DNA from: Nemertoderma westbladi
Lineage: Eukaryota > Animalia > Xenacoelomorpha
Reading direction: 5' to 3'
Length of the DNA stretch: 43,974 nucleotides
Assembly: GCA_032718475.1 (NCBI GenBank)
Contig: JAUCBJ010000993.1
Span: forward strand, 1 to 43,974
Under the pieces are notes generated by a model. The model worked only from the letters and a program-made list of their open reading frames with translations. It made no database searches and was not told the DNA's origin. A program made the translations under genes and the position numbers. Positions 33-41,100 of the stretch are shown here, piece after piece. Positions within the stretch are counted from its first letter, which is position 1. Every line of letters begins with the position of its first letter.

Positions 33-2830
33 CTAATTTTTGTTTGAGGCAGGAGACAAATTATAATCTCCTGTCTCGATGCGTGTCTCTTCTAATAACA
101 CAATATCTTGGACCGGTCGGTCCAAGGTGTGTAAACCATTAGTTTTACACTTCTTTGGGTGCGGACACTTGCACCTAATTTTCACAGTGACTGTGCGCAC
201 TATATTTTGCGCGTCTGGGTGTATGTGCAAGATAACTCCCGTCTCCCAGTACTTTCTCTTGACAATTGGTTCGGTTATCAATACATAGTCTCCTCTTTGG
301 AGGCTCCGAACCGTTTTGTACCACTTTGTTCTGGTAGATATGGTGGGAAGATAGTATTCCCGCCAATATTCCCAGAATGTGTACGCCACAAATTGAGTCA
401 CTTTCCAGCTCTTACGACTATATAGGTCGGCACTAATGGGTTCTGATGCCGGCACAAGAAATGCTGGACTCTGCATTAGCAAATGATTCGGTGTTAATGC
501 AACACCGTCTGGCAACATAGCTATCGGCCTCGAGTTCAGTGTATGCTCGATTTCGATGAAAGCTGTGACCAGTTCGTCGTCGGTAAGTTGTTTGTTTACA
601 GGCAATGTCTTAGCAATAGCCTGCTTTATGGAACGAACCAAACGCTCCCAACTTCCTCCTCTCCAAGGACTTTCTGGAGTATTGAATCTCCACTCTACTC
701 TTTGCGGCAAAAGTGCTGCAGAAATTTCTTTATTCTGCGCTGCTCTGTGAGCCGCGTTCAACTCGCTATTCCCTCCGACAAAGTTTGTACCCTTATCAGA
801 GTAGAACACCTTTACTAGTCCTCTCCTGGCCATAAATCTCTTTAAGGCCAGGAGCAGAGATTTGGTCGACATGTCTGCCACACGCTCGATATGTATGGCT
901 CTACTAGCCATGCATGTCAGTAGCAGGCCCCATCGCTTGTGGGTCAGCCGTCCACTCTTTGCCTCAATCGGACCAAAACAATCCACCCCTGTATTCGTAA
1001 AGGGTGGGTCATATGCCTGCACTCTCGCTTCCGGGAGTTCAGCCATCTCCTGTTCCAATACTCTGGCGTTCACCCTCTTGCAAACCAGACAGGCGTCGTA
1101 CATAGTGCCTACTGCCCTGCTTGGCTGCAATAGAATGAATCGCTGTCTCGCTGCCGACAAACAGTGTAACTTTCCCGCGTGATGCAACCTCTTGTGTATA
1201 TCCCATAGAATCGCTCTTTGCAATTCTATTGGGTGACTAGGGATTATCACTGGGAACCTGAACTGTGAGTTTATGTCGACAGTCTGGATTCTCGATCTAT
1301 GACAAATTAAACCCTTATGGATTAATGGACTCCATTTTCTAAGGGGTTTATAGAGAACTGGTCGTTGAGCCGATAATAGATGAGAATTCTTTGGGAAGGC
1401 ACACATTTGATAATGTTTCAAATGCTTTAATTCCGCTTGATCAATCTCATCCTCTGTCAGAGGTTGTTTCAATTTCTGAATTCGCTCACTATTAGCGCTC
1501 ATTTGTTCTCCCAAATGTTTCGAATGTTTTAAACAAAGGTACGAAATGTATCGGCTTAACCACGCAGTTCTTTTACAAATTGTCAGCCAAGAGGCAGACG
1601 AATTTAGTAATTTGTCATAAATACTACATGGCTCTAATGCCAGCGACGGTTGTCCGCTAATTAATGGAAGTTTCGAATCCAAACCCGCAGGTTTGGAAAC
1701 CAAAGGCTCCATTGTGTCGGTCATTTTCTGTCCGTCACTTACCAACTGTGACCCTCGGGTAGTCTGTAAGGGTGGTTTTATGTCATAACTTACCCTTCCT
1801 GACCTAGTAGTCACGTAAGTCTGTTGGTCTGACAGGTCTCCGGGCCGCTCCAATGACTCTTCAGGCCGCTCCAATGACTCTTCAGGCCGCTCCAATGACT
1901 TGAGTTTGGCTTTAGACTTTGACTTAGAGACTTTCTCCACCTTGACTTCTGCATCTTCTGGCATCGGATTGGTCACTATCTTCAGTCGCTCTGGCCAATG
2001 TTCCTGTGTCCTCGTTAGAAAATCAGGTCCATGCAACCAAAACTCCTGCGACTCTTCCTGACAGAATTCCGCCGGCATTGCACCTCTCGAAGTTATGTCG
2101 GCTGGGTTTAACACTCCCGGACAATGTCTCCATTGTTCCTTCGTCGAAAAATCGACGATCTGAGCGCGTCTGTTGGCCACAAATGTCTTTAGTGCAATAT
2201 TGTCGGCCGCAATGTATACTAACACTAAGGATGCGTCCGTCCAATAAAATAAGGTCAACGTCGTGTCTAACTCCTCTATTATCTGCTTACTTACCTCAAC
2301 TGAAACTACTGCCGCCTGTAACTCTGCACGAGGGACAGTCATGTATTTGACCGGCATTGTCTTTGATCTAGAAGTCACAAAAGCCGTCTCAAACTTGTCC
2401 TGACTTACCTCTCGGCGAAGGTAGGCTACCATACCAAAGCCGGTGTCACTTGCGTCACTAAATAGGTGGAGTTCGAGATCAGCTGGAAATACCAGCTGAT
2501 TCGGAAAGTAGGAACGGGGTACATCTATGTTTTTCAATAGATGCAACTCGGCTTCCCACTCTCTCCACTGCTTTGCATGTATAGGAGATATTGGTTCGTC
2601 CCACTCTAGGTCGGACAACCAAATTTTCCTCATGCACGCTCGTGCCTGTAATATTACCGGACTGATAAAGTTCATCGGGTCAAATAGTCTACTTAATGTC
2701 GATAAGCAAATTCTCTTTGTCAAAACTTTGTCTGGACTACTGGGCTCAAATCTAACTCTTACCTGGAACTTTCTGTTGGTTCCAAGCGAGTCCCAGTACT
2801 CGCGCCATGGGGATGGGTTCTACCCCCAAT
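33..2830 (-). CDS. pol: BEL/Pao Pol C-terminal part: RT connection, RNase H, integrase (HHCC + DDE) and C-terminal domain
   Basis: ORF 33..2723: LHLFSDASDTGFG (RNase H), H..LHH...C..C zinc finger, GVDCFGP / YSDKGTNF / WERL catalytic triad. Joined to the RT ORF through two frameshifts near 2855 and 2770; the intervening frame reads ELGVEPIPMARVLGLAWNQ. Confidence 0.92.
1843..1900 (-). repeat. 21-bp tandem repeat, ~2.8 copies, in frame (LERPEES) in the RNase H-integrase linker
   Basis: ggccgctccaatgactcttca starts at 1843, 1864 and 1885. Confidence 0.9.
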
Positions 2831-4423
2831 TCAATGTCTCCGCTCCCGCGATCCTTTCACCGGGAACGATTCTAATAGGGCCTCCGAATTAGTGGTGAAC
2901 TTGGTCAGAGGAAATCCCCCTGTAGCCAAGCACTTCTGCAGGCCGTGAGCCACTTCTATGGCTTGTTCCGCTGTGTCCTTGGACACCAATCCGTCGTCCA
3001 TATAGAAGTTTCTCAATATAGACTCGATAACCTCTACTGGATACTTACCAATCTGGGCTGTTGCCGTTTTCTTTAGAACAAACAGCGTGCCGTTTAGACT
3101 ATCGCGGGCACCAAATATCCTAACGTACATTTGGTATGTAACCACTGGGCCGGATAAGTCTTCATTCTCAAACCAGAGAAATCGAAGGCTATCCTGGTCT
3201 GCCTTACAGGCTCTTACCTGGTGGAACATCGCCTCGATGTCACAAGTAAATGCGAATCGCCGCTGTCTAAAACGCAACAGTATTCCTATCAAATAATTGT
3301 TCAGGTTGGGTCCGTCCATCAACTCTGAATTCAGGGACATACCTCTGTAGACTGCTGCGCAGTCGTTGACTACTCGGACTTTGTCAGGCTTGTCAGGGTG
3401 AGTCACATAGTGGTGTGGGAGGTAATAAGTCTGGTCTGTCACTAAGTCAGGGTCCTCTACCTTCCCAGCAAATCCCTTGGCGAAATAGTTGTTGATCTGA
3501 GCGCAATACTTCTCCCTAATGTCCGGATTCTTCAACAACCGAGCCTTACTCCATTCAATCTTTTCAAGGCTAAGTGTTAGTTGTTCTCCAACTTTAGGAG
3601 GTTGTCGACGCCACAACATTCCAACTTCAAAATGTCCCGTCGGTAGCAGACGTATGGTGTCTTCCATCATCTCTAGCGACCGTTTCTCATCAGCAGACAT
3701 GGCTAGGTCATATCCACCGGGTTCCATTGCGTCCCTATCCAGCCATTCGACGGTTCTGGCTCCTGTCTCGAGGTCCTGGCGTATCAATTCCTTCTGCAAT
3801 TCCTCCTCACTGTATTGGAAAATGTCTAGGTCTCGATATTTAGCCACCTGACCCTCCACTATGTCGGTATAAGTCAAAACGTTACTCAAATAGGTAGCGT
3901 GGGCCGCTGAACCAGACCCATGGGTCTGATAACAGTAGTCCTCGGGTTCACTATCTGTCCGGTCGTTATGAAGTGGTTCTGACAACCTAACATTATCGGG
4001 AATCAACTCCTCGTCCGACTCGCTAACGTCACTATAATGGTCAATACAGGTTCTCCTAAACTCGTCTATGTCTGGTGGTTCTAGTAACGGTGGTTCAGTT
4101 ATAGGCTGTAATCCGTCGTATCTATCTATTGGCTTGTCGCCACCTGTAAACTCATAAGACATGGGTACTCGTGTATACCAACCTAATATAGTCCTATGGG
4201 CATGTGGTCCATTTACATGCGGCTCAGCTGGTCTCGTTTCCCATATCTGGTGTGCGATCAGCTGTTCTGCACCAATCAACATAGAAACATTCCTATAACC
4301 TACCTGGTGTCTCGGTACTCTGAGTTTGTCAAAATACTCCTGTGCTATGGGACTCATCGGCGGCACCTTACCTAACTGCCTGCTGAACCCCTTCATAGCT
4401 AGACACTTAAATCCGTCCAATGG
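2831..4423 (-). CDS. pol: BEL/Pao Pol: C-terminal half of the aspartic protease plus reverse transcriptase (putative 3' exon)
   Basis: VSMLIGAE and HRTILGW (second half of the BEL protease), then YYLPHH, KVRVVNDCAA, SLNSELMDGP, CDIEAMFHQ, IFGA and NFYMDD (RT). The ORF has no ATG ahead of these protease residues. Confidence 0.9.
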   Translation of the reverse strand, partial: PLDGFKCLAMKGFSRQLGKVPPMSPIAQEYFDKLRVPRHQVGYRNVSMLIGAEQLIAHQIWETRPAEPHVNGPHAHRTILGWYTRVPMSYEFTGGDKPIDRYDGLQPITEPPLLEPPDIDEFRRTCIDHYSDVSESDEELIPDNVRLSEPLHNDRTDSEPEDYCYQTHGSGSAAHATYLSNVLTYTDIVEGQVAKYRDLDIFQYSEEELQKELIRQDLETGARTVEWLDRDAMEPGGYDLAMSADEKRSLEMMEDTIRLLPTGHFEVGMLWRRQPPKVGEQLTLSLEKIEWSKARLLKNPDIREKYCAQINNYFAKGFAGKVEDPDLVTDQTYYLPHHYVTHPDKPDKVRVVNDCAAVYRGMSLNSELMDGPNLNNYLIGILLRFRQRRFAFTCDIEAMFHQVRACKADQDSLRFLWFENEDLSGPVVTYQMYVRIFGARDSLNGTLFVLKKTATAQIGKYPVEVIESILRNFYMDDGLVSKDTAEQAIEVAHGLQKCLATGGFPLTKFTTNSEALLESFPVKGSRERRH

Positions 4424-5624
4424 CAAAGCTCTCTGTTCTTGTCGAGTCGCTTGTGTCCTTCTGGGCTCCTCCCCAAGGCGCACCCACGAGGCGGACACTG
4501 TCCCACCACCCCTGGGGCCAGTCTGACTGATGTTATTATCAGACCGGGCCGGAGGGTGGCCTGATGCTTCCCGGGTTCTGTTTTCGCTCCCCCGATCACA
4601 CCGGCACAGCTCTTCAGTGTAGCCAGATGGTCGGCTACTGTCAACTTACTGTGGCCTGACTGTACATTGAGCCAACTCAGAGAGTCAACCGGCGGGTGGA
4701 CCAGTCGATAGCGATCAAGCACCAAGGTCGCCCTTGGGCCTAAGCGACGGTCTTGTCCCAAGTGGGCTTGCGCTACCCAACATGGAATATTGACACGTTT
4801 TCACCCGCTCGCCGGCAGTATTGAGGGGAAGTAAGTTCCGCAAACAATACTGACTAGCTCGAAAGCTAGGAACAAGTAACCACTTACCAGTCGCTGTACA
4901 CGTGTACTCAACAGATGTTCACAATATCAAGTACACTACGGTAAACACAAAATCTGACACATACCATGCACACACAGATGACATAATCGGGAAAGACAAA
5001 AATCGAGGTCAAAATCGGAGGGGACAAATTGTATCGACCAACAACCAAATCGAGGGTACCTTATTTTGCCGTCAGGGCAAAATAACTTTGTGTGCACAAA
5101 GCATGCTGGGGCGCAGTAAAATATGGTCCTACTAATACCAGTGGCGACTGAGCCAACTGGCAAGGTTTCCCATACTCATTCGCAGTGGCCATACATACAA
5201 TCACGTGTACTCACATACCCACAGCAACAGAAAGCTCATCTCAGACCTAAACACACTCCAAAGACCAATCAACTGAGCATGGAGACAAAACATATAGTAT
5301 CAAAAAAACGGAACAGCTGACTGTCAATGGCACACATCCAAGCCCCAAAGCTAACTGCCACTGCTCGCCGACATACAAATCATAGTTCACACCACATGAA
5401 CCACAAATCACGCCATGCCACCACCCCTACTGTGTACAGGACTGGCAGTATGGCAACAGGCCGACTAGACGGTACCACGGCACCATGGCAATTCATGGTT
5501 CGCTAGACACGAGGGCCTTCAGTATCTCCCTTGCGCTTAGAGACAATTTAACGTGCCCCCAGACCCTCACGAGTCCGCCGCCGCCTGCTATAGGCACCCC
5601 TATAGAGACCTCACCTCTTTAGGT
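4424..5624 (-). ncRNA. Putative group I self-splicing intron (subgroup ID-like core) interrupting the retrotransposon protease
   Basis: Minus strand: P3 GCGGGUG (4808-4802) / CACCCGC (4698-4692). P4 ACG(U)GUC / GACCGU. P5 UUCCA/UGGGA. P6 with a CCAAGG-GCGA-CCUUGG tip. P7 U(C)GACUG (4708-4702) / CAGUCA (4662-4657). P8 GGUUGACUC-UCU-GAGUUGGCU. J8/7 CAAUGUA. P1 exon GCAU / IGS GUGC (5597-5594) with a U-G pair. Core is well supported; the 3' splice site (G4424, alternative G4466) is less certain. Confidence 0.85.
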
Positions 5625-7538
5625 ATGCTGGTCTCTCGGAAGTAGGGAGTCTAGTTCTACCGAAATCCTGTGTCCCTTGAGGTCCCCTACCCCGTGCATA
5701 GACTTCAACTCTATTTGTATTTCCTCTGCGTCCTGGAAGCTAGAAACGGCTCTCGCCACTTCCTCGTCGATATACGATAATGTGGACGCAGTGTCCAACA
5801 TCACATATATTCGCTTAGATCCCTTATCGCCAGTAAGTTTCACCGGAATCACGCTAAATATTTCCGATGTGGCCGATGATAAATACGTCCGCGCGCTGGT
5901 CGATGAACTATCCGCGGTGAAACCTTGGCAGGTCACCTCTCTCGCGCTCGACTCGCCATCCTCGTCCGACGAACCTGGTTGATAACCATCGTCCTGAATG
6001 CCGGTATACGTATTTCTTCTTATCGATACGGGTTCTCTGCTCCCCTTCCTTTGAGGATTTCTCTGTAAGTAACGGTCCGTTGGGGTGTGGAAATCCGCAT
6101 GTAGCAACTTGTGATGTAGTCTGCCGCATTCCATGCATCCGTCCTTGCTGTCCGGGCACTGCCGCCGTACATGACCTGGCGCAAGACATGCCCAACAGGT
6201 ATCCAACGTCCGCACTTGAACTTTTCTCTGTTCCGAATTTAATTCTTTGAACCGTCTGCAACTATCTAACTTATGGTCGTCAGATCTTACCTCCTTTAGT
6301 AAGCAGAATTGGCAACCTACAAATTGATCCGGCAACTCCTGTTGCTTTAACATAGGTCTATCTAACTGCTCACCTGACCATACTCGCGAGTCTGATCTAA
6401 AGGCTGGGGTACTCGAATTATATCTGTCTACTGAGTTAAATGTCACAGTGGTCCTGTCATCGTCAAAACTTACCATAGACTTACCGGTAACAGGTTTAGA
6501 CTCCCTCATATTATCCTCTGAGAAGTTTGATTTCATCTCTGCTACTGCGTCTGTGGCTATCATGTCATGGATATGCTGAAGTGTCAACACCTTCCCTTGA
6601 CCTTCCAACTTATTCTCTAATTTGCGCCATTTCTCGCGCATGTTTAAGCGTCTAATTACGCTCTTCAAAACTTCGGCGTGATCACCATGATGAGGTAGAT
6701 TCACTGTCCTCAAGATGTCTAATGCGTTTGAAATAGCGTTCGCTAAGTTCAACAGCTCTAACGGAGTTGTAATCCTTCCGCCCTTACCCAAGTCTTCCAC
6801 TATCAACTGTGCCATCTTGGTTTTATTCCCGTAGATGTCGCTAAGCGTCTTCATTGCCAACTCGAATGCTCTTTCATTGCCAACGAAGTTGTCAGCAATG
6901 GCTCTAGGTTCTCGATGGAGCATTTGAAGCAAATAGTTGAACTTCTTGTTGGGAGTAAAGGTGCTGTTGGTTAGCTGTTCGTCGACATAGGTTTTGAAAG
7001 TCCTCCAATGCTTATGGTTGCCCATAAACTTCTGGGGTTGTTGCGTCGGCAATCCTTGCCTAGCAGCAAACTTACCTATGTCCCTAAGGGTTGCGTCGTT
7101 CCAGGTTAACAAATGGTTTAGTTCTGCAGGGTTGTTAAGTCTGGTCCTTTCCCGGGGATTAAAACTTACCTGCTCCACGTCCGTCCTTCTTTCCTTATAG
7201 TTTCGGGACTTCTGACGTCTCATGTCTTCCTCTTCATCGCTTGATTCTGTGTCTGTCCTTAGCGCTCGCTTTGGTTTGCGCGCCGAGGCCCTGACCCAAG
7301 CCTCCTGTATAAATTTTTCGGCCGAGTTTTCGAAATCGGGATTATGAATCGTAGGGACAGGCATTCTTACCTGAGATCTATGTGGTATAGTGGCCTCCGA
7401 TATGCGTACTCGTTGACTAGGTTGGACTTTATCTAACTCAGGCCTGCTAGGATTAGAATTACTTCTTACCTGGGCTGCTTCCTTTAACCGTAGGTTACTA
7501 AGCATGTCCGTTATAGGTTGGATGTGCGGCAATATCAC
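5625..7538 (-). CDS. gag: BEL/Pao Gag plus N-terminal half of the aspartic protease (putative 5' exon)
   Basis: KFMGNHKHWRTF...KFNYLLQML capsid-like region; three Cys/His knuckles (CQFC..H..C, CWAC..GH...C, CMECGRLHHKLLH); IYVMLDTASTLSYI catalytic motif. The unspliced frame stops at TAA 5621-5619. Confidence 0.92.
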
Positions 7539-9499
7539 TTACACTTACACTAGCACTTAACTCATCCCTTGTAATAAATTCCTGGCTAGGGTTCTGTTGT
7601 ATAGTCAGCTCTATCTGAGTAATCCGCTGTCTCTCATATGATCCCTATTCCGGTTTAACCCGGAAGTTCTCCATCGAACTGGGTCGGCGCTCCGTCCGCG
7701 TATTCCAAACCCGCGGGTTCGGTTCGCCCAATACTCGACCCGTCGGAGTTTCTCCTCTAAACTCTTCGTTGTCGCGTTCAGTGTGTAGTGGTGCAGTGCG
7801 ATGATGACGTGGATCTTGCGCAATGGGTGAAGCACTAATACCAACTGGTGTGCGATATGTAGAGAACGGTTTAGCGATCAGAGTACTCGTAATAGCTGGA
7901 ACGGGTATAGGAATTCTGGTCGTCTTCGACTCGCGTATGGTCGGAGTTCTCGCTTCCTGTTCGGCCTTCTGCAGTGCGAACAGTTCTCGCAACTCAGTAC
8001 CTATACTCGCCCCACATTCTTTGATCATTCGCATCCCCTTCTCGGCGATTTCATTCACCTTCCTAGTCCGTTCCTTGCTCTCTAGGTTTAATCTCGCACT
8101 TTCCAACTGCGCCAGTTTACGTTCTTCTTCTTCCACGCGCGCCTTTTCCTCATACAACGCCTGTCGCTCCTTCTCGATCTCGAGTTCGCGTTCCTTGCGT
8201 TTGCGTTCAAGCTGTAGTTCGCGTTCCTTCTGTTCGCGTTCGAGTTGGAGTTCGCGTTCCTTCTGTTCGCGTTCAAGTTGGAGTTCGCGATTCCTTGCAT
8301 TCGCGTTCAAGTTGGAGTTCGCGTTCCTTGCGTTCGCGTTCTGCTTGTTCCCGCTTACCTTTATCTTCCAACTCTCGCAACTTCGCGTCTAACTTACGTG
8401 TGCGCTCCCGTTCCCGCTCGGCTTCTTTCCGTGCTTCCGATGCATGCAAAACTTCCGCCTGTTGTTCGTCCAGTCGGCGTCTTCTCTCCTCCGCCGAGTT
8501 GTGAGAAACAAGGGATCTAGCACATATAACTTTCCCTCGCGCGTGACTAACCTGGGAATCGCCACTGTCTCTAGATGCGTCATCGGGTGGAGTTAACGTC
8601 CTCTGTTGGATGTTCTCTGTCGTCGGTAGCACCTGGCCCGGTACCACCACTCCACTCTGCATCAACCAGCCGGTAACTTCCCGGTGATACCTGCGCTCCT
8701 CCTTATCTTGCGTCTCTTCTCGCTCCACTAAGTTTCTCGACTCTGCGTCACTCACCTGAGTCGCCTGCGCTTGTGATGCCCATAGCAGCCAGTTATCCAT
8801 CCTAACTCATCGAAATCGCTCCGATAACGCGCAGTGCTCCAACAAGGCTGCTAAAACCCTGTCGTAAACCCTCGTCGCCACGTCGCTCGACTGAGACTCT
8901 ACTGCTCTCTTTGCCAGGACTGCAAGCTCCTCCGTCTGCTTGAATAACGCTGAGTTGTATCCTCTTCTAATCTCTACTAACCCTTCCCTTCCGATGTTCG
9001 CTGAGTCGGCTAGCATCTTCCTTACCTTGTCCGCCGTCCGAGTTATATGTCCAGCATGCGCGCGAAGTTTCTTCTTTATCGCGATGTCTAGTTCTCTCTC
9101 ACTTACCTGACTCACACTTGGTGGACTTGAAGGATTATTTCGGGAACTACGGATACTCCTTACAGCCGCTGGGACCATGGCACTTACCATACCCACAGGC
9201 CTGGAAACCGGGCTCCGGGCTCTCGCTTCTGCTACACTACCCTCCCTATCACTCACCTCTGGCCGGGTTGCTGTACAATCCTTCCTTACAGTAGCGGTAG
9301 GGGGTCCTAATACTATTACCTCCGGTGGTTCTTCCTCACTAGTTACTGTCTCGTCCTCCTGTTCACTTACGTCAGCGTCACTCACTGCATCGTCATAGTC
9401 GGCATTGTCGTCAACAGTAATATTAACGCTATCGTCAGTCGGCGGTCCAGCCGCCGTCTCATAGCTGGCCTCTAGTGCCTCTTTCTCTGAGACACTCAT
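7539..9499 (-). pseudogene. N-terminal acidic/coiled-coil part of the BEL/Pao polyprotein, broken by stops and frameshifts
   Basis: ATG at 9499. In-frame TGA at 8809-8807 (ORF 8800 continues in the same frame), an extra base near 8290 inside a 33-bp repeat, TAG at 7647-7645, and a further frameshift near 7540-7500 into the Gag ORF. Confidence 0.75.
8170..8345 (-). repeat. 33-bp coding tandem repeat (ERELQLEREQK), about 4-5 copies
   Basis: Repeated gagttcgcgttccttctgttcgcgttcaagttg variants; encodes a charged coiled coil. Confidence 0.85.
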
Positions 9500-9886
9500 A
9501 GTCTAAATAGTATTTGCCTTCCGGCAAAATCTCGCAAAATATTCGAGATATATATAATTTAATCGAAATACACGATTAAATTATTTGTCAAATAATCAAT
9601 TTGTCCAAAATGTCAAATAAATTCGCAATGCAATATTGTGAATTTAATAGGATCTAATTATAGCAAATACCAATACAATATTTAAACAAAATATTGTTCT
9701 ATAGCTATTATGTAGTATTTAAATACCGGTATGACACAAACAATTTTTTGAATCTAATACAAAATATTCAAAATAAACTTGCCACCCAAATATTTCTAAT
9801 TTTAGATATATAACTCTAATCAACGCAATTTTAATTTCAAATACTATATGTATCCACTAGCGCGTGGCTACATCTTCGGGTTGCGA

Positions 9887-13401: not shown

Positions 13402-13593
13402 TGTCATATCCATATAAAAGCATAATAATCTATAGATATGATGTATATTGCTCTATACATTGTGCAGTCGTACCAGTGTACACAAGTACTGCAGTGTACT
13501 GCCGTACTGATATAGTACTGTAGTATATATGTGCATACCGGTAATCCTCATCCTATATCATAGGCCATGGCCTAAGTAATACTGGACACGACA
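13402..13593 (-). repeat. Gypsy 3' LTR (192 bp)
   Basis: Matches 18777-18968 except tgtcat vs tgttat; purine tract at 13604-13594 on the minus strand. Confidence 0.96.
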
Positions 13594-13819
13594 TCACTTC
13601 CTCCAACAAGTAATTAAAACAAACAAGAGAAATAATAGGTATTGATGTACTTATGACTTACTGGTTAATTTCACATACGGCTTAATATCACATTATCACA
13701 TACCACCAAACAAATTAGTTAGTAATAGATTGTCCTAGTTAAGCGTTTGTCAGGCTGTAATCAATGTTATAAATGTTACTATGAATGTTCTATATTACTG
13801 TTTCAAAATTGTTTCAATC

Positions 13820-16800
13820 TTAATAACGAATATATGGTCCCAAGTCTCTAGGTTTTCGTTGTCGTGATGGTCTAGAGTTTTCTACTTGTCCCTGCAGTAA
13901 TTCATGTTCATCATTGCAGTTACCGTCTGGTTCGGCTTGGGGCATACTACTACTACTGCTACTACCACTACTGGATACTACTACTACTAGTAGTAGTAGT
14001 AGTATCGGTCTGGAATCAACATCATCGTCTAAATCTTCCCCTATGTCTTTATTGTACAAATCCTCAGAGGACGCATCACTTTTCTCATTGGTCTTGCTGG
14101 AGTGGTAGTGTTTCATATGGGTTGGATTTCGTCGCAGTGTAGACCCATGTTTTCCTTGTAGTATCATGGATTCTCCCTTCCGGCCAATTATTGTATATGG
14201 TGAGGGGAGCCACGTAGTTGAATATCCCTTTTCTACTCGGTTAAATCTGCGAATAAGGACAATATCCCCAACTTCAAAATCTCTTTCCTTAGCATGGCGT
14301 CGATTATCTGTATATTCTTTCATTCTCCTCTTATATTTCTGATCACGTTGTTGAACTGCTACATTGATATGTGGATTTGGTGTTAAAGCTTGGTTTGATA
14401 GCAATGCAGGGAGTTTTGTTTTTAATGTTCGATGGAACATTAATTCAGCGGGTGAGAATCCAGTGGCAGGATGAGGTGTAGATCTATAGTTGAGTTGGAA
14501 TGTCTGGAGATTGGTTTGCCAACTCTTATCTTCAACGTGGCAACTCTCTATGAATTTTCCCAGTGGCTGGTTAAGCCGTTCAATTTCCCCATTGGCGGAA
14601 GGGAATCGTGGGCTGATCAAATGTACTTTTATGTCTCTTTGTTTACAATACCGTCCGAATTCCTGTGAGCGAAAAGCAGGCCCATTATCAGTTATGATAT
14701 CTTTTGGAAACCCAAATATACTGAAAGTTCTTTCACACGCCTCTATCACATGTTTCGCATTTTCTGAATTCATAGGGATAACAATAGGATAACGAGATCT
14801 GTAGCAAATCATAGTTAATATATGTTTATGATCAACAGGGCCTAGAAAATCCATTCCTATCTTTGACCATGTTTCATTGGGAATGACTGTAGGTTTCAGT
14901 GGTGAGGGTTTTGCAGGTTTGCCTGTAGCTTGGCATGGTAAACACCTTGTTATATAATTTTCTGTATCCTTGTTTAAATTGGGCCACCATACCGTTTCCC
15001 GTAGGAGTTGTTTGGTACGTGTCATGCCTTGATGACCTTCATGGGCTATCTCAATACAGAGGTCACGCAATAGCTGGGGTATAACGATTCTCTTCCCCCG
15101 TAATATTATATTATCGTGGGTGATGCTGAACTCATGTCGATCTGAGTAATATGGCTTCAACACATCTTTGTCTTTGTCCCATGCATCATTCATAATAGCG
15201 GAATGCAGAATAATCAAAGAAGTGTCCTTCATAGTATGTTCAATTATTGTTTCAAGGTTCAGATTAAATGGTAAATTGCTTTGGATTATTGCTCTGACAT
15301 ACTGTTCTGTATGTTTTCCTTTCTGTGGGCATGAACCTTTTGGTGTTTGGCGCGATAATATGTCTGCATAGTTGTCCTTACCTTGGATATAAGATAACTT
15401 ATAATTATATTCCCCTTGTATTTTCAGCAACATGCGTTCTATGCGAGGTGTTGGGTTACCGTTGGGTGCGAAAATTCGCAATAGTGGTTTATGGTCTGTT
15501 TGTATGTTAACTGGTTGTGGTGCTCCACGAAGATAGATGTTATATCGCTGCAATGCCGAAGTTATTCCCAGTGCCTCTCTTTCTGTTTGGCTATATCGAC
15601 TTTCAGTTTCTGAAAGAGACCGATGGGCAAAAGCAACTGGCTGATCAAGTCCTGATGGTTGGGTCTGGCTCAGAATTGCACTAATTGCTGTGGGTGATGC
15701 ATCAGTGGTGAGTGTTGTAGGAAGATCACGTTTGAAATATGCCAATGTTCTAGGATTTGATATTTCTTCAATCAGCTTCTTCCAAGCTATGAGGGCTTCA
15801 TCCGACATTTCGAACACTTTGTTCTTTGCAAGTAGACTCTGAAGAGGTGCTTTAAGAATGGCATAATTTGGGATGAAAGGTGACAACCACCCAAGCAATC
15901 CAAGACTGGACTTCAGTTCAGTCTTGGTAGTTGGAATTTTTAGGTTTTTTACTGCCTCAATTTTCTTCTCACAGGGTGTCAGCCCCGTGTTTGTAAGTAG
16001 ATGCCCCAGGAATTCAACGCTTGTCTACAAAAATACACACTTTGATCGTTTTAATTTTATGTTTCGTTCTTTGCATCTTGCTAACACTTGCTGCAGACGC
16101 TTTAAATGTTGCTGCTTCCCATAAACCCACACAATTATGTCATCACTGGCATTTCTTGTTCCATCAATCCCTTGTATGGAACGTTCCAACTCACGATGGA
16201 AAATTTCTCCACTGGTTGATACACCCATAACCAGAGTAGTATAACGTTTCATTCCTTTGTGAGTGGCAAATGTTGTAAGTGGTCGTGAATCAGGATGTAA
16301 ACCAATTTGATGGTACCCACGATCACAATCTAAATGTGAGTAATATAAAGTCAAGTCATCAGTCATATTGGATGGATTAGGAGGTTCTTCCAAGGCAATT
16401 TGATCAACAATTTCTTCGAGTGTCGGTATCGGATGCCGTTCGCGTACTAGATGTTTATTAAGCTCCCGGGCATCAAGCGTAATCCGAACTACGGGAAGGT
16501 TTTCATCATCTGTGCGGTTGGGTTTAATTTGAAGTACCATTCTTGAAACCCATGGGGTAGGACCAGTGGCAGTTTCAATCATATTAGCCTCCTCCTGGAT
16601 GGAAAGTTCTTTTTCACACGGGCGGCGGAGATGAAATGGAATACGTGATGCACGTACTGCGACAGGGTCTGCATCTTCTCTGAGGTGTAATTTCACTTGT
16701 ATTGGGGTGCCATTTTCGTCACACATGAGACCTGTGGCTGAGAAAACATCGGAATATTTTGATATAATATAGTCCAGATGTGATGTGTCCAATGTTTTGT

Positions 16801-18217
16801 GAGTTTTGCATTCTAATAATTGTCGCACTCCTATCTTCATTCCTCTTTCTTTCACACTAGGTGGGCCAACCCGTAGCAAATCCAAAGCCGTGGCAGATTT
16901 GTATCCTAATAGAGATAAGTCTTGTGTACTAACAACAATAAACTTTACCTTAGCTGCTTGCCCACAGGCTTCCACTGTTGCTCGCACTTTTCCAACGATT
17001 TTTAGCGGAGTTTTTGAATTGTATGGATATATGATACTTTTAGTGGGTGTTAGATTCATGTATTCACCATGTTGTTGTAGTGTTTTGTATGCAGAATATG
17101 TGAGGATATTACATTCTGCTCCAGAATCAATCGGGATAGGGATGCTTGTATTGTTGATATTTACATTGTAACAAGGACCCGCAGTAGAAATCTTATGAAT
17201 TTTGTGTTCCTTAAATAGAGCATTGATGCATAAATCACCATACTCATCAGATGATGTGCTTTCTTCGCTATAAATCGTTTCAGTTTCTTCATTGTCGTCG
17301 ACTAATTGTCGTAAGTTTCGTTTAGTTTTCATACCTACTACTTTCATGTGTCCTATTCCACCACATGCATTACAGATGATTTTTGCTGATATTCGACTAT
17401 CAGGAACTTTGTGATCTGTATTCCCACATCGGTAACAATGTGTATATTGGGGTGTGCTGACAGAATTTGCAGTTGGCGGCTTGTTCTGGTATTTGTAATT
17501 TACCATTTTTCGCTGCCATTGCTGTTCAGCGTTTGCTTTTGGCCTTGAATATCGGTTTTTAAATTTAGCTATTTTATTAACTTCAAGGTCATCAATGTCG
17601 TCACTTTGTCCCACTAGTTTTGTAGATCGTGCGAACTCTTCAATATCTAGTGCTTGTTTAGATGTCTGTTCTAGCGTTTGAGCAATTTGAATACATCGTG
17701 TTAGTGTACAAGCTGCAGCGTCTTCCTCTGCCACTCGAAGAAATCGTTGTAATAATTTCTTGGATCGACATCCTGCTACAGCGCGGTCACGTATATTTCG
17801 CTCTAAAGCATTGCCAAAATTACAATACTTGGCCTGTTTCCAAAGTCGTGCTATATATGAGCTGAATAACTCATTTGGCTCTCGTGTTAGTGAGTTAAAC
17901 CTGAATGTTGAAAATACTTCATTTTCTCTTTTGCCGAATTCATTATTTAGTGATGTACGTGCTACTGTGTAAACATTTTCATTAGTGTCAGGCACAGGTT
18001 GTGGAATAGTCAATGTAACAAAGCGGTCCTGTACCTCTTCACCAGATATATGTAGAAGAATGCTTTTCATTTGTTCAGGGTCTTTGACACCCAGTGCAGA
18101 CAAATATATGTCGAAAGTGTTTAGCCACTTTTCCCAGCGAGGGGTTACGGAACTGACATCATATGAAATTTTAAATGGTTCTGGTGCACGTAGGGAGATA
18201 TGTCTGGCTTCGGCCAT
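13820..18217 (-). CDS. gag-pol: Gypsy single-frame Gag-Pol polyprotein with one premature stop (TAG 16027-16025)
   Basis: ORFs 18217..16025 and 15898..13820 share a frame. Zn knuckles CYRCG/CNACG, protease IDSGA, RT LDCDRGYHQ..NASDDII, RNase H TTDAS..EREAL..TDHKPL, integrase AHEGHQG..CLPC, GMDFLGP, TDNGP, EIER. Confidence 0.94.
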
Positions 18218-18776
18218 CCCTTAAAACTGTAACGTGTACCGTTACTGTGATTTTGTAATAACTTATATCTCAGTATTTATCTTAACTACGAACTGTCAGA
18301 AGCGGCCTACAGTATTGCTATTACTGTATTGGCTTTGGCTCCTATTTTATGTCGAGAACAATTCCTGTAATCATGGAACTGCTATAATATAATATGCATG
18401 CTAGGTTAGGCTGCTAGGCCTAGGTTGTTAATATGAAAATTTTACAACTGTACTGTTGTATATTGTAAGCGCTGTAAGCTGTAAGCGATTGTAGGTTAAT
18501 AAATACCGGTAGTCTGGTAGTTGTGGGTTAATAATACCGGCAGCTGTACAACTGTAATGTTGTACCAAATAGGTAGGCCTATACTTGTAAGCAAATGGCC
18601 TGAGTTTTCTCTGTACCGGTGCCAGAATCTTTTATCACTAAATCCAGAGTCACCAGATCAGTTTCTCCTTTCGCAGTACTGGTAAGCCTAAATCTGTAAA
18701 TGGCGTAAGCCAGTAAGAAGCTTAAGTCTGTAGGTAGAAATGTCACCACCACGTGGATCGACCGACTCTTCGCCAA

Positions 18777-18968
18777 TGTTATATCCATATAAAAGCATAA
18801 TAATCTATAGATATGATGTATATTGCTCTATACATTGTGCAGTCGTACCAGTGTACACAAGTACTGCAGTGTACTGCCGTACTGATATAGTACTGTAGTA
18901 TATATGTGCATACCGGTAATCCTCATCCTATATCATAGGCCATGGCCTAAGTAATACTGGACACGACA
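18777..18968 (-). repeat. Gypsy 5' LTR (192 bp), followed by the PBS at 18775-18766
   Basis: Direct repeat of 13402-13593. PBS TGGCGAAGAG is one mismatch from TGGCGACGAG, the complement of the tRNA-Ser(GCU) 3' end. Confidence 0.96.
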
Positions 18969-19149
18969 TATATTTACGCAAGTGATACCGTAATTTACTT
19001 TACGTACAATTACATTTTGTTACGTTTTGTGTAGCTAATGTTTTTATTGTTTGTTACTAAACCGGGTACACTTCCTTCTAGTTTCCCTATTTTTGATATG
19101 ATAGATTAAAAACTATCATTTTAATTTATCAAAAAATTGCAAAATGGCA

Positions 19150-32148: not shown

Positions 32149-33258
32149 CTGTGAACTCTCTATGAACTCTGTGGTTGTATTAAAGAACGTTGTGTCAATG
32201 TAATAATAATGGATGGCTATGGCTAGCAAGGTAACAATGCAATGCGCCTGTACGCAGTGACTATGGTAAAGAACTCATTAGCATAATTAGATTGGATATT
32301 GCCTTGAATGGACGCCATCTTGAATGGATATGTAGAGTGAAAACACAGGAACATGACGTTGGATTGGGCTTATTTAAGTATCTCTTGAAAAAGTAAATAT
32401 ACCACGAGACTCGTCATGTTGCATTCCATAAGATGTATATATTTTGAATATAATTTTTGATAGTATAATAGGAGTTTTTGCATAAAAACTAGCTTAAAAG
32501 GCGATATTTTTTTGTAAAAAGCCGGGTTTAGCAAGATGAGTTGGTTGGGATGTCAACAAAGCTTCTGATTCGCTGTTTCTGTGGAGACAAAGGGAAAATA
32601 GCTTCAACCATTATAGATTTAACATTAAGTGAAGGGGAATAATGGTTTGTCTTTTTCACAGAATTTTCGCCTGTACATTATTTCGAAAAGTTTTGGGTTT
32701 GATCGCGCGAAAGTGACAGATTCGGAAACTAGATTGAATTTTGCATACAACTTTTTTTTTTTAGCTACTCTTGAGGATCAAGTTTTCTATGTTTATTTTG
32801 CATTTTAAATACTAACTTTCTCCCCACCATTGAACTAATGGTAGTGTTTGAACGAATGAGAGTTCTTCGTTACTAAAATGACATGATGATTACTGACTGA
32901 GCGTGGCTTAGAAACCAGTAGTGTACTCTGAAAATAATGAAAACTTTGGCGGCCTGTAACTTTGGTTGACGTGGATGAAATAGGCTGATTTTAAGTTCAT
33001 TAGAATGTGCGTAATTTTCTCTTTCTGTTCATACTAAGTACTAATTAAAACGATGAAGAATAACCTTATTTGAATTTATAGTTATAATAACATAGTTGAT
33101 ACAATGGATCAAAGGGGGCAGGGGTGTGTATGGTAAGTATTTGTTATAGGCCTATGCATTGCGGCTAAATGCCATGGTATCATTATGTAAATGCTTGTGA
33201 AATGATACTGGTATCGGTATCGGTAAATTGATATCGACATTGATTAGTGATATTGGCA

Positions 33259-35229
33259 TCGATATTGGTTATTGTAATTGGTTATTGATATTGGTTAGTG
33301 GTTATTGATATTGGTTATTGGTATCGATATTGGTTATTGATATTGGTTATTAATATTGGTTATTGGTTATTGATATTGGTTATTTATATTGGTTATTGAT
33401 ATTGATTATTGGTATCGATATTGGTTATTTATATTGGTTATTGGTATCGATATTGGTTATTTATATTGGTTATTGATATTGATTATTGGTTATTTATATT
33501 GGTTATTGGTATTGATTATTGGTTAGTGGTTATTGGTATTGGTTATTGGTATTGATTATTGGTTATTTATATTGGTTATTGGTATCGATATTGGTTATTG
33601 ATATTGGTTATTGGTTATTGATATTGATTATTGGTATCGATATTGGTTATTTATATTGGTTATTGATATTGATTATTGGTTATTTATATTGGTTATTGGT
33701 ATCGATATTGGTTATTGATATTGGTTATTGATATTGGTTATTGATATTGGTTATGGGTTATTGATATTGGTTATTGGTTATTGGTATCGATATTGGTTAT
33801 TGATATTGGTTATTGATATTGGTTATTGGTATCGATATTGGTTATTGGTATCGATATTGGTTATAGAGATTGGTTATTGATATTGATTATTGGTTATTGA
33901 TATTGGTTATTGGTATCGATATTGGTTATTGATATTGGTTATTGATATTGATTATTGGTTAGTGGTTATTGGTATTGGTTATTGGTATCGATATTGGTTA
34001 TTGATATTGGTTATTGATATTGGTTATTGATATTGGTTATTGGTTATTGATATTGGTTATTGGAATCGATATTGGTTATAGAGATGGGTTATTGATATTG
34101 ATTATTGGTTATTGATATTAGTTATTGGTATCGATATTGGTTATTGATATTGGTTATTGATATTGATTATTGGTTAGTGGTTATAGATATTGGTTATTGG
34201 TATCGATATTGGTTATTGATATTGGTTATTGATATTGGTTATTGGTTATCGATATTGGTAATTGATATTGATTATTGGTTAGTGGTTATTGATATTGGTT
34301 ATTGGTATCGATATTGGTTATTGATATTGGTTATTGATATTGGTTATTGGTTATCTATATTGGTAATTGATATTGATTATTGGTTAGTGGTTATTGATAT
34401 TGATTATTGGTATCGATATTGGTTATAGAGATTGGTTATTGATATTGGTTATTGATATTGGTTATTGGTTATTGATATTGGTTATTGGTTATTGGTATCG
34501 ATATTGGTTATTGATATTGGTTATTGATATTGGTTATTGGTATCGATATTGGTTATTGGTATCGATATTGGTTATAGAGATTGGTTATTGATATTGATTA
34601 TTGGTTATTGATATTGGTTATTGGTATCGATATTAGTTATTGATATTGGTTATTGATATTGATTATTGGTTAGTGGTTATTGGTATTGGTTATTGGTATC
34701 GATATTGGTTATTGATATTGGTTATTGATATTGGTTATTGATATTGGTTATTGGTTATTGATATTGGTTATTGGTATCGATATTGGTTATAGAGATTGGT
34801 TATTGATATTGATTATTGGTTATTGATATTAGTTATTGGCATTGATATTGGTTATTGATATTGGTTATTGATATTGTTTATTGATATTGATTATTGGTTA
34901 GTGGTTATTGATATTGGTTATTGGTATTGGTATCGATATTGGTTATTGATATTGGTTATTGATATTGATTATTGGTTATTGATATTAGTTATTGGCATTG
35001 ATATTGGTTATTGATATTGGTTATTGATATTGTTTATTGATATTGATTATTGGTTAGTGGTTATTGATATTGGTTATTGGTATTGGTATCTATATTGGTT
35101 ATTGATATTGGTTATTGATATTGGTTATTGGTTATCGATATTGGTTATTGGTATTGGTTATTGATATTGGTTATTGGTTATCGATATTGGTTATTGGTAT
35201 TGGTTATTGATATTGGTTATTGGTTATTG
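33259..35229. repeat. Complex satellite of GATATT / GGTTATT / GGTATC units (13-mer GATATTGGTTATT core)
   Basis: About 2 kb, almost C-free on the plus strand, with higher-order sub-blocks. Confidence 0.95.
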
Positions 35230-37224
35230 ACATTTTGACATGTCATTTTACCAAAATGTCACTATCAAATTGACATTTTGACCTGACATGTCATTTTGAC
35301 AAAATGTCAGTTTCAAATTGACATTTTGACATGTCATTTTGCCAAAATGTCACTTTCGAATTGATATTTTGACATGTCATTTTGCCAAAATGTCAATGTG
35401 TCAATATGTCACTTTCAAATTGATATTTTGACATGTCATTTTGCCAAAATGTCAATGTGTCAATATGTCACTTTCAAATTGACATTTTGACATGTCATTT
35501 TGCCAAAATGTCATTTTCAAGTTGACATTTTGACATGTCATTTTGCCAAAATGTCACTTTTGAATTGACATTTTGACATGTCATTTTGCCAAAATGTCAC
35601 TTTCGAATGACATTTTGACATGTCATTTTGCCAAACCGTCACTTTTGAATTGACATTTTAACATGTCATTTTGCCAAAATGTCACTTTCGAATAGACATT
35701 TTGACATGTCATTTTGCCAAAATGTCAATGTGTCAATATGTCATTTTCAAGTTGACATTTGACATTTGACATGTCATTTTGTCAAAATGTCACTTTCAAG
35801 TTGACATTTTGACATGTCATTTTGCCAAAATGTCATTTTCAAGTTGACATTTGAAATGTCATTTTGCCAAAATGTCACTTTCAAGTTGACATTTGACATG
35901 TCATTTTGCCAAAATGTCACTTTCGAATTGACATTTTGACATGTCATTTTGCCAATATGTCATTTTGTCAAAATGTCACTTTCAAATTGACATTTTGGCA
36001 TGTCATTTTGCCAAAATGTCACTTTCGAATTGACATTTTGACATGTCATTTTGCCAAAATGTCACTTTCAAATTGACATTTTGACATGTGATTTTGCCAA
36101 AATGTCACTTTCGAATTGGCATTTTGACATGTCATTTTGCCAAAATGTCACTTTCGAATTGGCATTTTGACATGTCATTTTGCCAAAATGTCACTTTCGA
36201 ATTGGCATTTTGACATGTCATTTTGCCAAAATGTCACTTTCGAATTGGCATTTTGACATGTCATTTTGCCAAAATGTCACTTTCAATTGACATTTTCATG
36301 TCATTTTGACAAAATGTCACTTTCAAATTGACATTTTGACATGTCATTTTGCCAAAATGTCACTTTCGAATTGACATTTTGACATGTCATTTTGCCAAAA
36401 TGTCAATGTGTCAATATGTCACTTTCAAATTGACATTTTGACATGTTATTTTGCCAAAATGTCACTTTCAAATTGACATTTTGACATGTCATTTTGCCAA
36501 AATGTCACTCTCAAATTGACATTTTGACATGTCATTTTGGCAAAATGTCATTTTCGAATTGACATTTTGACATGTCATTTTGCCAAAATGTCACTTTCAA
36601 ATTGACATTTGACATGTCACTTTGCCAAAATGTCACTTTCGAATTTACATTTTGACATGTCATTTTGCCAATATGTCATTTTCAAGTCGACATTTGACAT
36701 GTCAATTTGTCAAAATGTCACTTCAAATTGACATTTTGACATGTCATTTTGCCAAAATGTCACTTCAAATTGACATTTTGACATGTCATTTTGCCAAAAT
36801 GTCACTTTCAAATTGACATTTTGACATGTCATTTTGCCAAAATGTCGCTTTCGAATTGACATTTTGACATGTCATTTTGCCAAAATGTAATTTTGCCAAA
36901 ATGTCAATGTGTCAATATGTAACTTTCAAATTGACACTTTGACATGTCATTTTGCCAAAATTCCACTTCAAATTGACATTTTGACATGTCATTTTGCCAA
37001 AATGTCAATGTGTCAATATGTCACTTTCAAATTGACATTTTGACATGTCATTTTGCCAAAATGTCACTTTCGAATTGACATTTTGACATGTGATTTTGCC
37101 AAAATGTCACTTTCAAATTGACATTTTGACATGTCATTTTGCCAAAATGTCACTTTCGAATTGACATTTTGACATGTCATTTTGCCAAAAAGTCACTTTC
37201 AAATTAACATTTTGACATGTCATT
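35227..37224. repeat. 43-bp palindrome-rich satellite
   Basis: tgacattttgacatgtcattttgccaaaatgtcactttcaaat, about 45 copies, some carrying a tgtcaatgtgtcaata insertion. Confidence 0.96.
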
Positions 37225-37552
37225 TAGTGTTAAATTAACCGCAGATTCCAAATACAGTTACCGTTTTTACATATGATTGGTAGTTCTCGCGATATTGGCG
37301 TTCAAACACAACGTTTTTTGATATTTTACGAAATTTAAGGTATTTTTTATTGAAAAAGCAGACATAACTATTCCCAGTCCGTTTCTGTAACATTAAGAGA
37401 AAAGTTAACTTGTGATACTTCTTTTAGTGTTAAATTAACAGCAGATTCCAAATACAGTAACCGTTTTTACATAAGATTTGTAGTTCTCGCGATATTTGGG
37501 TTCAAAAACAACGTTTTTTGATATTTTACGAGATTTAAGGTATTTTTTATTT
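37223..37552. repeat. ~130-bp direct repeat at ~200-bp spacing
   Basis: ttagtgttaaattaac.gcagattccaaatacagt...aaggtattttttatt at ~37224 and ~37424; also present in copy 2 (43427-43756). Confidence 0.85.
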
Positions 37553-38165
37553 TAGTTTAGTAGTTGCGTTTTCCAGCCAGCAGTTCCTTGGCAGTGTGTG
37601 TGTGGCAGTAGCTGCATTGTGTAAGATTCTCAAATGTAGTCTCACCTATAAATATAAACAATAGATATAAGTTTACATATAGATCAATAATTATTAGTGC
37701 AAACAATTACAATAGGAAGCGAATTAGAATGTGTTGAATTTCGCCAATACAACTTAATGTTGATATTATTAATGAGATTAATTCTCGGCTTTAGCTGCCC
37801 TCCTATACTCCATGTGTTGAAGGAGCTGTCGTCCCATAGAGATCCTTTGTAAAGGGAATCCTAGGCCTCTCATTGGTTGAAGTTACATTCCAGGCCAATT
37901 GAATTATTTATTTAATTGCAAAAATAATGAATTGAAGAACAATATTCTTACTGTTGGGTTTTAAACCGTTTGTAAGTCGCGTTATAATGAACAGAAATTA
38001 ATGATTAACACTTCATTTGAAAGCCTCGTTATTCAGGATTATTGATATGTAAAAAAATCTTTATAATACTTATGAGAAGATATTATTTAAAGTGATTGTG
38101 TATAAAATGGCCACGTAATGGGATCGCGGTGGCAGTTTACGGGACCCCCCCCCCCCCCCCGAACC

Positions 38166-41100
38166 GTTAATGAAATATAATTAAATAAGGGAGACAACAA
38201 CGTAGCCAGTTGTGAGTGAGTTAATGAAATATAATTAAATAAGGAGAACAACAACGTAGCCAGTTGTGAGTGAGTTAATGAAATATAATTAAATAAGGGA
38301 GACAACAACGTAGCCAGTTGTGAGTGAGTTAATGAAATATAATTAAATAAGGAGAACAACAACTATGAACTCTGTGGTTGTATTAAAGAACGTTGTGTCA
38401 ATGTAATAATAATGGATGGCTATGGCTAGCAAGGTAACAATGCAATGTGCCTGTACGCAGTGACTATGGTAAAGAACTCATTAGCATAATTAGATTGGAT
38501 ATTGCCTTGAATGGACGCCATCTTGATGGATATGTAGAGTGAAAACACAGGAACATGACGTTGGATTGGGCTTATTTAAGTATCTCTTGAAAAAGTAAAT
38601 ATACCACGAGACTCGTCATGTTGCATTCCATAAGATGTATATATTTTGAATATAATTTTTGATAGTATAATAGGAGTTTTTTGCATAAAAACTAGCTTAA
38701 AAGGCGATATTTTTTTGTAAAAAGCCGGGTTTAGCAAGATGAGTTGGTTGGGATGTCAACAAAGCTTCTGATTCGCTGTTTCTGTGGAGACAAAGGGAAA
38801 ATAGCTTCAACCATTATAGATTTAACATTAAGTGAAGGGGAATAATGGTTTGTCTTTTTCACAGAATTTTCGCCTGTACATTATTTCGAAAAGTTTTGGG
38901 TTTGATCGCGCGAAAGTGACAGATTCGGAAACTAGATTGAATTTTGCATACAACTTTTTTTTTTTAGCTACTCTTGAGGATCAAGTTTTCTATGTTTATT
39001 TTGCATTTTAAATACTAACTTTCTCCCCACCATTGAACTAATGGTAGTGTTTGAACGAATGAGAGTTCTTCGTTACTAAAATGACATGATGATTACTGAC
39101 TGAGCGTGGCTTAGAAACCAGTAGTGTACTCTGAAAATAATGAAAACTTTGGCGGCCTGTAACTTTGGTTGACGTGGATGAAATAGGCTGATTTTAAGTT
39201 CATTAGAATGTGCGTAATTTTCTCTTTCTGTTCATACTAAGTACTAATTAAAACGATGAAGAATAACCTTATTTGAATTTATAGTTATAATAACATAGTT
39301 GATACAATGGATCAAAGGGGGCAGGGGTGTGTATGGTAAGTATTTGTTATAGGCCTATGCATTGCGGCTAAATGCCATGGTATCATTATGTAAATGCTTG
39401 TGAAATGATACTGGTATCGGTATCGGTAAATTGATATCGACATTGATTAGTGATATTGGCATCGATATTGGTTATTGTAATTGGTTATTGATATTGGTTA
39501 GTGGTTATTGATATTGGTTATTGGTATCGATATTGGTTATTGATATTGGTTATTAATATTGGTTATTGGTTATTGATATTGGTTATTTATATTGGTTATT
39601 GATATTGATTATTGGTATCGATATTGGTTATTTATATTGGTTATTGGTATCGATATTGGTTATTTATATTGGTTATTGATATTGATTATTGGTTATTTAT
39701 ATTGGTTATTGGTATTGATTATTGGTTAGTGGTTATTGGTATTGGTTATTGGTATTGATTATTGGTTATTTATATTGGTTATTGGTATCGATATTGGTTA
39801 TTGATATTGGTTATTGGTTATTGATATTGATTATTGGTATCGATATTGGTTATTTATATTGGTTATTGATATTGATTATTGGTTATTTATATTGGTTATT
39901 GGTATCGATATTGGTTATTGATATTGGTTATTGATATTGGTTATTGATATTGGTTATGGGTTATTGATATTGGTTATTGGTTATTGGTATCGATATTGGT
40001 TATTGATATTGGTTATTGATATTGGTTATTGGTATCGATATTGGTTATTGGTATCGATATTGGTTATAGAGATTGGTTATTGATATTGATTATTGGTTAT
40101 TGATATTGGTTATTGGTATCGATATTGGTTATTGATATTGGTTATTGATATTGATTATTGGTTAGTGGTTATTGGTATTGGTTATTGGTATCGATATTGG
40201 TTATTGATATTGGTTATTGATATTGGTTATTGATATTGGTTATTGGTTATTGATATTGGTTATTGGAATCGATATTGGTTATAGAGATGGGTTATTGATA
40301 TTGATTATTGGTTATTGATATTAGTTATTGGTATCGATATTGGTTATTGATATTGGTTATTGATATTGATTATTGGTTAGTGGTTATAGATATTGGTTAT
40401 TGGTATCGATATTGGTTATTGATATTGGTTATTGATATTGGTTATTGGTTATCGATATTGGTAATTGATATTGATTATTGGTTAGTGGTTATTGATATTG
40501 GTTATTGGTATCGATATTGGTTATTGATATTGGTTATTGATATTGGTTATTGGTTATCTATATTGGTAATTGATATTGATTATTGGTTAGTGGTTATTGA
40601 TATTGATTATTGGTATCGATATTGGTTATAGAGATTGGTTATTGATATTGGTTATTGATATTGGTTATTGGTTATTGATATTGGTTATTGGTTATTGGTA
40701 TCGATATTGGTTATTGATATTGGTTATTGATATTGGTTATTGGTATCGATATTGGTTATTGGTATCGATATTGGTTATAGAGATTGGTTATTGATATTGA
40801 TTATTGGTTATTGATATTGGTTATTGGTATCGATATTAGTTATTGATATTGGTTATTGATATTGATTATTGGTTAGTGGTTATTGGTATTGGTTATTGGT
40901 ATCGATATTGGTTATTGATATTGGTTATTGATATTGGTTATTGATATTGGTTATTGGTTATTGATATTGGTTATTGGTATCGATATTGGTTATAGAGATT
41001 GGTTATTGATATTGATTATTGGTTATTGATATTAGTTATTGGCATTGATATTGGTTATTGATATTGGTTATTGATATTGTTTATTGATATTGATTATTGG

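Follow-up and report, generated by a model that had tools for sequence, protein, structure and literature searches.

The protease gene of a BEL/Pao retrotransposon in Nemertoderma westbladi was found to be divided by an insert that is, by its sequence, a group I intron. We regard it as probably an endonuclease-free, selfish mobile intron, likely self-splicing, whose early in-frame stop codon is an ordinary part of the 5′ helix. A sequence-only reading of the window (the whole stretch of DNA analysed, 43,974 nt) had proposed self-splicing as a switch between Gag and Gag-Pol; what carries the finding is the intron and its spread, rather than the switch.

The BEL/Pao host element and the boundaries of the intron

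Profile matches and reading frames placed a BEL/Pao retrotransposon on the minus strand across 33-9502 of the window, which begins within the 3′ end of pol (Table 1). The expected domain order was found, namely Gag DUF1759, protease, RT, Peptidase_A17, integrase, and DUF5641. The upstream frame (5619-7538) matched DUF1759 (E = 4.7e-08), carried Cys/His zinc knuckles at aa 409-480 and the protease Asp at codon 582, matched positions 5-76 of the protease profile, and ended 57 residues past this Asp. The RT piece had 226 BEL/Pao homologues with an identity of up to 47%; those named came from corals, sea urchins, molluscs, a tunicate, a ribbon worm, and fishes. The copy is broken, with six frame pieces in three frames. 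Elsewhere in the window, a Gypsy-type LTR element lies on the minus strand at 13402-18969, with two 193-nt repeats that are 99% alike and a gag-pol frame with a single interrupting stop near 16025, and 32324-43974 holds a near-exact tandem duplication of 6.2 kb as well as satellites of 13, 43, and 200 nt.

Table 1 Predicted features of the intron and its host element in the window, and retroelement sites of relatives
Feature	Position or loci	Strand	Basis or remark
Group I intron, 1,177 nt	4448-5624	minus	intron-less DNA contigs; core helices; frames
5′ splice site after U5625	5624-5625	minus	intron-less joint; X6 contig starting at 5624
Likely upstream gag pieces	7645-9502	minus	interrupted by one stop and frame changes; no Pfam match
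3′ gag portion and first half of protease	5619-7538	minus	639 codons; frame stops at intron UAA
Second half of protease and reverse transcriptase	2831-4447	minus	protease profile positions 115-163 matched from 4447
RNase H and integrase region	33-2819	minus	Peptidase_A17, Integrase_H2C2, DUF5641; frame differs from RT piece
In-frame UAA, second intron codon	5619-5621	minus	its U pairs in the P1 extension
P1 extension	5596-5624	minus	5624-5621 with 5599-5596; inner helix 5618-5614 with 5608-5604
Internal guide	5590-5595	minus	invariant G5595 and five variable bases; position fixed by 41 of 50 relatives
P10	5599-5596 with first four 3′ exon bases (4444-4448 = these and G4448)	minus	four contiguous pairs next to G5595
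P3	4808-4802 with 4698-4692	minus	7 of 8 pairs changed on both sides
P4	4798-4792 with 4752-4747, one bulge	minus	core alignment
P6	4746-4745 with 4713-4712	minus	core alignment
P7, guanosine-binding helix	4708-4702 with 4662-4657	minus	invariant, but served as search pattern: no weight
P8	4690-4682 with 4678-4670	minus	7 of 9 pairs changed on both sides
Exon-intron helix of the sequence-only reading	5636-5630 with 5610-5604	minus	7 bp; possible folding trap at this single site
Second hairpin of the sequence-only reading	5605-5599 with 5594-5588	minus	present here, broken in most sibling depth
Relatives before protease	L066		flanking frames
Relatives in protease-RT linker	L072, L090		flanking frames
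Relatives in RT	L062, L099		flanking frames
Relatives in RNase H or behind it	L038, L040		flanking frames
Relatives in integrase	L048, L051, L060		flanking frames

DNA contigs lacking exactly 1,177 nt were recovered from runs X1 and X2, which are DNA of one sample, with a joint at 4445/5623 that, given two letters of play, equals 4447/5625. The depth at these joints was 35 and 46 in X1 (one contig each) and, in X2, 336 in two contigs and 79 in one. Precisely intron-less DNA copies therefore exist, and they independently back the 5′ splice site after U5625 that the sequence-only reading had claimed. With this placement, a U precedes the 5′ site and G4448 is the last intron base; the two-letter play permits other readings. 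Further intron-less contigs (X1, X2, X3) carry differences near the junction, so that the copies without the insert may descend from an older lineage in which it was always absent. The summed depth of the insert was of about the same order as that of the exons, depth sums over contigs being no copy number.

The longest open frame in 4448-5624 had 117 codons, no frame of 100 aa with a start lay wholly inside, and no transposase or endonuclease frame was found within the 1,177-nt intron. The distance from the 5′ anchor to the core was 876 here vs a median of 360 (range 197-817) in relatives, and the intron holds about 500 nt beyond the median relative.

A 53-nt contig from run X6 (depth 260.5 of 509 in its bin) began at 5624, preceded by 23 foreign letters, and X6 had no exon cover past 5631. 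The sequence of a template-switch oligo is printed in a passage of PMC9546769. By eye, 17 of the foreign letters correspond to the 3′ part of this oligo; two letters and then four G come after them. The 3′ end of the Smart-seq2 oligo consists of the same two letters and three G, leaving one extra G in X6. The contig is probably a cDNA, from a run annotated as DNA, with its RNA end exactly at the splice site plus one extra G. Such a G is what the first splicing step would add; a cap or untemplated addition would look alike, and the observation is a single contig in one run. In run X4, which carries a second organism label, low-depth pieces of the element and the intron were observed within 3886-6809 at about 92-98% identity, through contamination or a shared family.

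A conserved group I core overlooked by Rfam

The intron shares with group I introns (RF00028; subgroups IA-IE) the P3-P7 pseudoknot with P4, P6, and P8, a U preceding the 5′ splice site, a G as its last base, P10, and, in its relatives, the P1 guide, but differs from them in having no Rfam match. Family members were searched with a pattern built from both P7 strands, which matched 30 viral, at least 119 metagenome, and 1 prokaryotic locus, the last on a 1.3-kb contig of a metagenome-assembled genome; three of the 30 viral matches (L006, L019, and L026) were dropped because a longer motif was absent. Aligning the window with 45 of the 74 usable cores (46 sequences) revealed that 98.0% of 1,515 cells were paired and that 16 of the 33 core pairs had changed on both sides. 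None of 500 shuffles reached the observed pairing, a control inflated by relatedness, and slid controls paired at 24-49%. Rfam, including RF00028, returned only chance matches for the intron and matched 0 of the 16 viral loci submitted; since RF00028 misses the viral relatives too, the Rfam model overlooks this intron family. The invariant 5′ 30-mer of the intron had no match among viral contigs. One-base indels at 4795 (P4) and 4807 (P3), observed relative to part of the sibling contigs, suggest that the core is slightly decayed in this copy.

Guide and exon vary together in the relatives

The guide test was applied to the 50 distinct loci, of at least 147, in which the 5′ anchor was located. 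In 41 of these, the hexamer before the conserved anchor pairs with the locus's own 5′ exon through five Watson-Crick pairs and the splice-site pair, vs 106 of 2,432 pairs when guides and exons were crossed. The splice-site pair was G.U in 33 of the 41; the other eight (L002, L013, L023, L034, L044, L048, L062, L087) have a Watson-Crick pair at the inferred 5′ site. Pairing extended beyond six bases in 12 of the 41, where chance expects about a quarter. An origin of the guides from the exon through template switching was rejected as a general rule. That the fold of the sequence-only reading might be P1 itself, with U5625 paired to G5612, was considered and dropped, as the relatives place the guide at 5595-5590.

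About 24 relatives, with a loop of 26-34 nt, have a P1 extension of this layout built from different letters. L090 has the same first nine intron bases as the window, stop included, and the same last five; its P1 is perfect, and its inner helix shows a compensatory change relative to that of the window. The relative in a Gypsy element, L066, has a guide that fits neither flank and may be a recombinant joining two introns from different sites.

In the window, the homologous guide pairs with its own exon at only 2 of 6 positions, which rules out the usual P1 in the homologous register; with a shift of two bases, a 4-bp helix could form. The loop of the intron itself is perfectly complementary to this guide, which may have been brought in from another site or may be a local inverted copy. 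Among siblings, the guide bases 5594-5590 differ from the window in 19-66% of the depth per position, and 5595-5666 shows no alternative letter at 1% of depth (four runs, three studies). Given a broken copy and a guide unfit for its exon, this copy probably splices poorly or not at all.

These features of the copy would also suit a relic, or an insertion at the DNA level, without splicing in this organism, the intron-less form being the ancestral state, and so would the roughly 500 nt of extra sequence and the finding of no spliced RNA junction among the contigs of the runs examined. We consider this reading very improbable: the first 30 nt of the intron are invariant while the guide varies, the X6 contig begins exactly at the splice site, and the core retains all its pairs.

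The early stop codon and the proposed hairpin switch

The sequence-only reading had pointed out a stop codon just inside the intron, and the minus strand indeed reads CAT (5627-5625), ACC (5624-5622), TAA (5621-5619). An unspliced transcript would yield Gag and half a protease, the frame ending at the intron UAA, and full Pol from an intron-carrying copy would need splicing, as had been argued. The stop is also conserved among siblings, with no variant at 1% depth in four runs. It does not follow that it is a special design, as the stop sits in the paired P1 extension, and such stops are general in group I introns of protein genes. In the 22 relatives with a clear frame (L032 was left out of the count as misassigned), the first in-frame stop lay 1-135 nt inside the intron; it fell at codon 2 in three of them, including L005, which lies in the DNA polymerase gene of a virus. 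By chance, 9% of cases would have a stop in the first two codons. The five retroelement hosts with a clear frame had their first stop at 1, 27, 76, 88, and 90 nt. Among siblings and relatives, no conserved signal at the gag-pol boundary was found; only the stop was invariant, and this in siblings.

According to section 9 of PMC2504315, early in-frame stops are a general trait of group I introns that interrupt protein genes of prokaryotes, and the T4 td, nrdE/F, and recA introns likewise carry a stop in their first codons. Translation is coupled to transcription for the phage and Bacillus introns, unlike in the eukaryotic retroelement host considered here, and the stops of the present relatives reach to 135 nt.

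The sequence-only reading had further described an alternative fold of an exon-intron helix and a second hairpin, which would hide the guide until a ribosome stopping at the UAA unwound it and triggered splicing. The copy does contain both helices, and their fold has the minimum energy for 5645-5585, at -18.8 kcal/mol (-14.0 and -7.4 for the other two registers). The exon-intron helix has 7 bp, with no variants at 1% in either arm, and ribosome-aided folding has a precedent in T4 td, where, according to a passage of PMC3017892, the ribosome may prevent exon-intron mispairing. However, the second hairpin is not conserved: its 3′ arm contains the variable guide bases 5594-5590, and 5588 in this arm differs from the window in 67-86% of the depth, while the 5′ arm is invariant, so that it is broken, uncompensated, in most siblings, and a guide-to-loop hairpin of at least 5 bp occurs in 0 of the 41 relatives. 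A conserved two-state switch is thereby unsupported, and for the second hairpin the proposal is largely refuted. As for the first helix, relatives show exon-to-loop helices of 0-6 bp (27 relatives) vs the 7 bp of this copy, and the usual partner of its intron arm, GGUCUCU, lies within the intron (5618-5614 with 5608-5604), where L090 has its compensatory change. The adjacent exon bases are equally invariant, so the invariance of the exon-intron helix says little. We therefore hold a ribosome-triggered hairpin to be highly unlikely.

Other sites and hosts of the intron family

In all four runs, the first bases of the intron join unrelated upstream flanks (20 of the 44 loose ends listed). Most of these flanks keep the U before the 5′ site; the guides could not be phased to the flanks across the invariant 31-mer. 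A host-gene scan covering 77 metagenome loci (L111-L149 left out) placed RT, RNase H, or integrase in or beside 10 of them (9 distinct) among the matches listed. Other hosts were giant-virus capsid, PolB, D5, and Rpb1 genes and nad5, and most loci had no Pfam match. The unrelated flanks, together with the scattered retroelement sites, point to re-invasion. They also speak against the claim that serving as unspliced genome is the only way in which the intron survives, as its end joins several unrelated flanks and its relatives occupy scattered retroelement sites.

Several loci showed further neighbours. The family core adjoins a histone frame in L050, where a nuclear or viral host gene is possible; cores lie near nad5 or LAGLIDADG frames in L055, L061, L086, and L097 and near His-Me endonuclease frames in L079 and L080. 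In L009, L011, and L020 and in L002, L013, and L023, the end of a capsid gene of giant viruses holds two family introns in tandem, or else one with traces of another.

Discussion

In a mobile, self-splicing intron of this kind, group I chemistry suggests that free guanosine would open the 5′ site and that the terminal G would then lead to exon joining; the spliced RNA would restore the host frame and be read through to Pol. The freed intron could reverse-splice into RNAs of retroelements matching its guide and P10 strand, to be fixed in DNA by the host reverse transcriptase. During reverse transcription, an unspliced RNA would retain the intron and a spliced RNA would drop it. Reverse splicing followed by reverse transcription has long been proposed for introns lacking an endonuclease, as a passage of PMC2504315 relates.

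Under this preferred reading, the dependence of Pol on splicing is likely a necessity such as any host gene would face, with no sign of regulation, and an excess of Gag could be a by-product of that need. We considered as well that the parasite may now be used by the BEL/Pao family, slow or partial splicing setting Gag to Gag-Pol, with the unspliced RNA serving as Gag message and genome; no alternative hairpin is required for this. The site falls within the protease, past the zinc knuckles, and cleanly parts Gag from Pol, the stop is without variants at 1% depth, and the intron has a depth of the same order as the exons. Yet the sites of relatives are spread over RT, RNase H, integrase, and the protease-RT linker rather than confined to one boundary, and the stop is fixed because it pairs in the P1 extension common to all sites. 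In addition, intron-less copies exist, the protease region is unbroken in 60 of 120 listed homologues (a biased set of proteins of at least 936 aa only), and no split Gag-protease homologue was found among 765 candidates, a weak test. An adopted intron is thus an unlikely explanation, less so than the hairpin or the relic.

Retroelements that tie protein supply to splicing are known. Foamy viruses make Pol from a spliced RNA. The Ty1/copia element BARE, a single-frame LTR element as here, sets its Gag excess by splicing (PMC3735527), but there the spliced RNA makes Gag only, whereas here the unspliced RNA would make Gag and the ribozyme-spliced RNA Gag-Pol. IStrons, composites of a group I intron and an IS transposon, resemble the present family in that one ribozyme occupies many unrelated genome sites (PMC4227781); the intron described here differs in having no transposase or nuclease frame, and its mobility would be borrowed. 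Polinton-like viruses, which are elements integrated in the genomes of eukaryotes, likewise have group I introns in protein genes, but passages of PMC12220804 place these introns in protist DNA viruses, not retroelements, and they match RF00028.

We found no report of group I introns in LTR retrotransposons in a literature search that was thin on subscription journals and excluded supplements, and passages of PMC9587614, PMC12220804, and PMC8557442 do not describe them. A wider scenario, in which protein-free group I ribozymes of animal nuclear genomes ride retrotransposons, switch their six-base guides, pass between retroelements and giant viruses, and have become a Gag/Gag-Pol gate at the protease site of this element, is doubtful as a whole; for the riding of retrotransposons alone, we see roughly even chances.

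A Gag:Pol ratio set by a ribozyme, for which the evidence is weak, would if true be a new expression strategy. According to a passage of PMC10964413, group I introns described from nuclear genomes are confined to rRNA genes and nearly absent from animals. A family missed by Rfam and residing in protein genes of retrotransposons would change this rRNA-only, animal-poor picture, and reverse splicing coupled to reverse transcription could then be tested in nature, as guide and target covary over a large number of copies.
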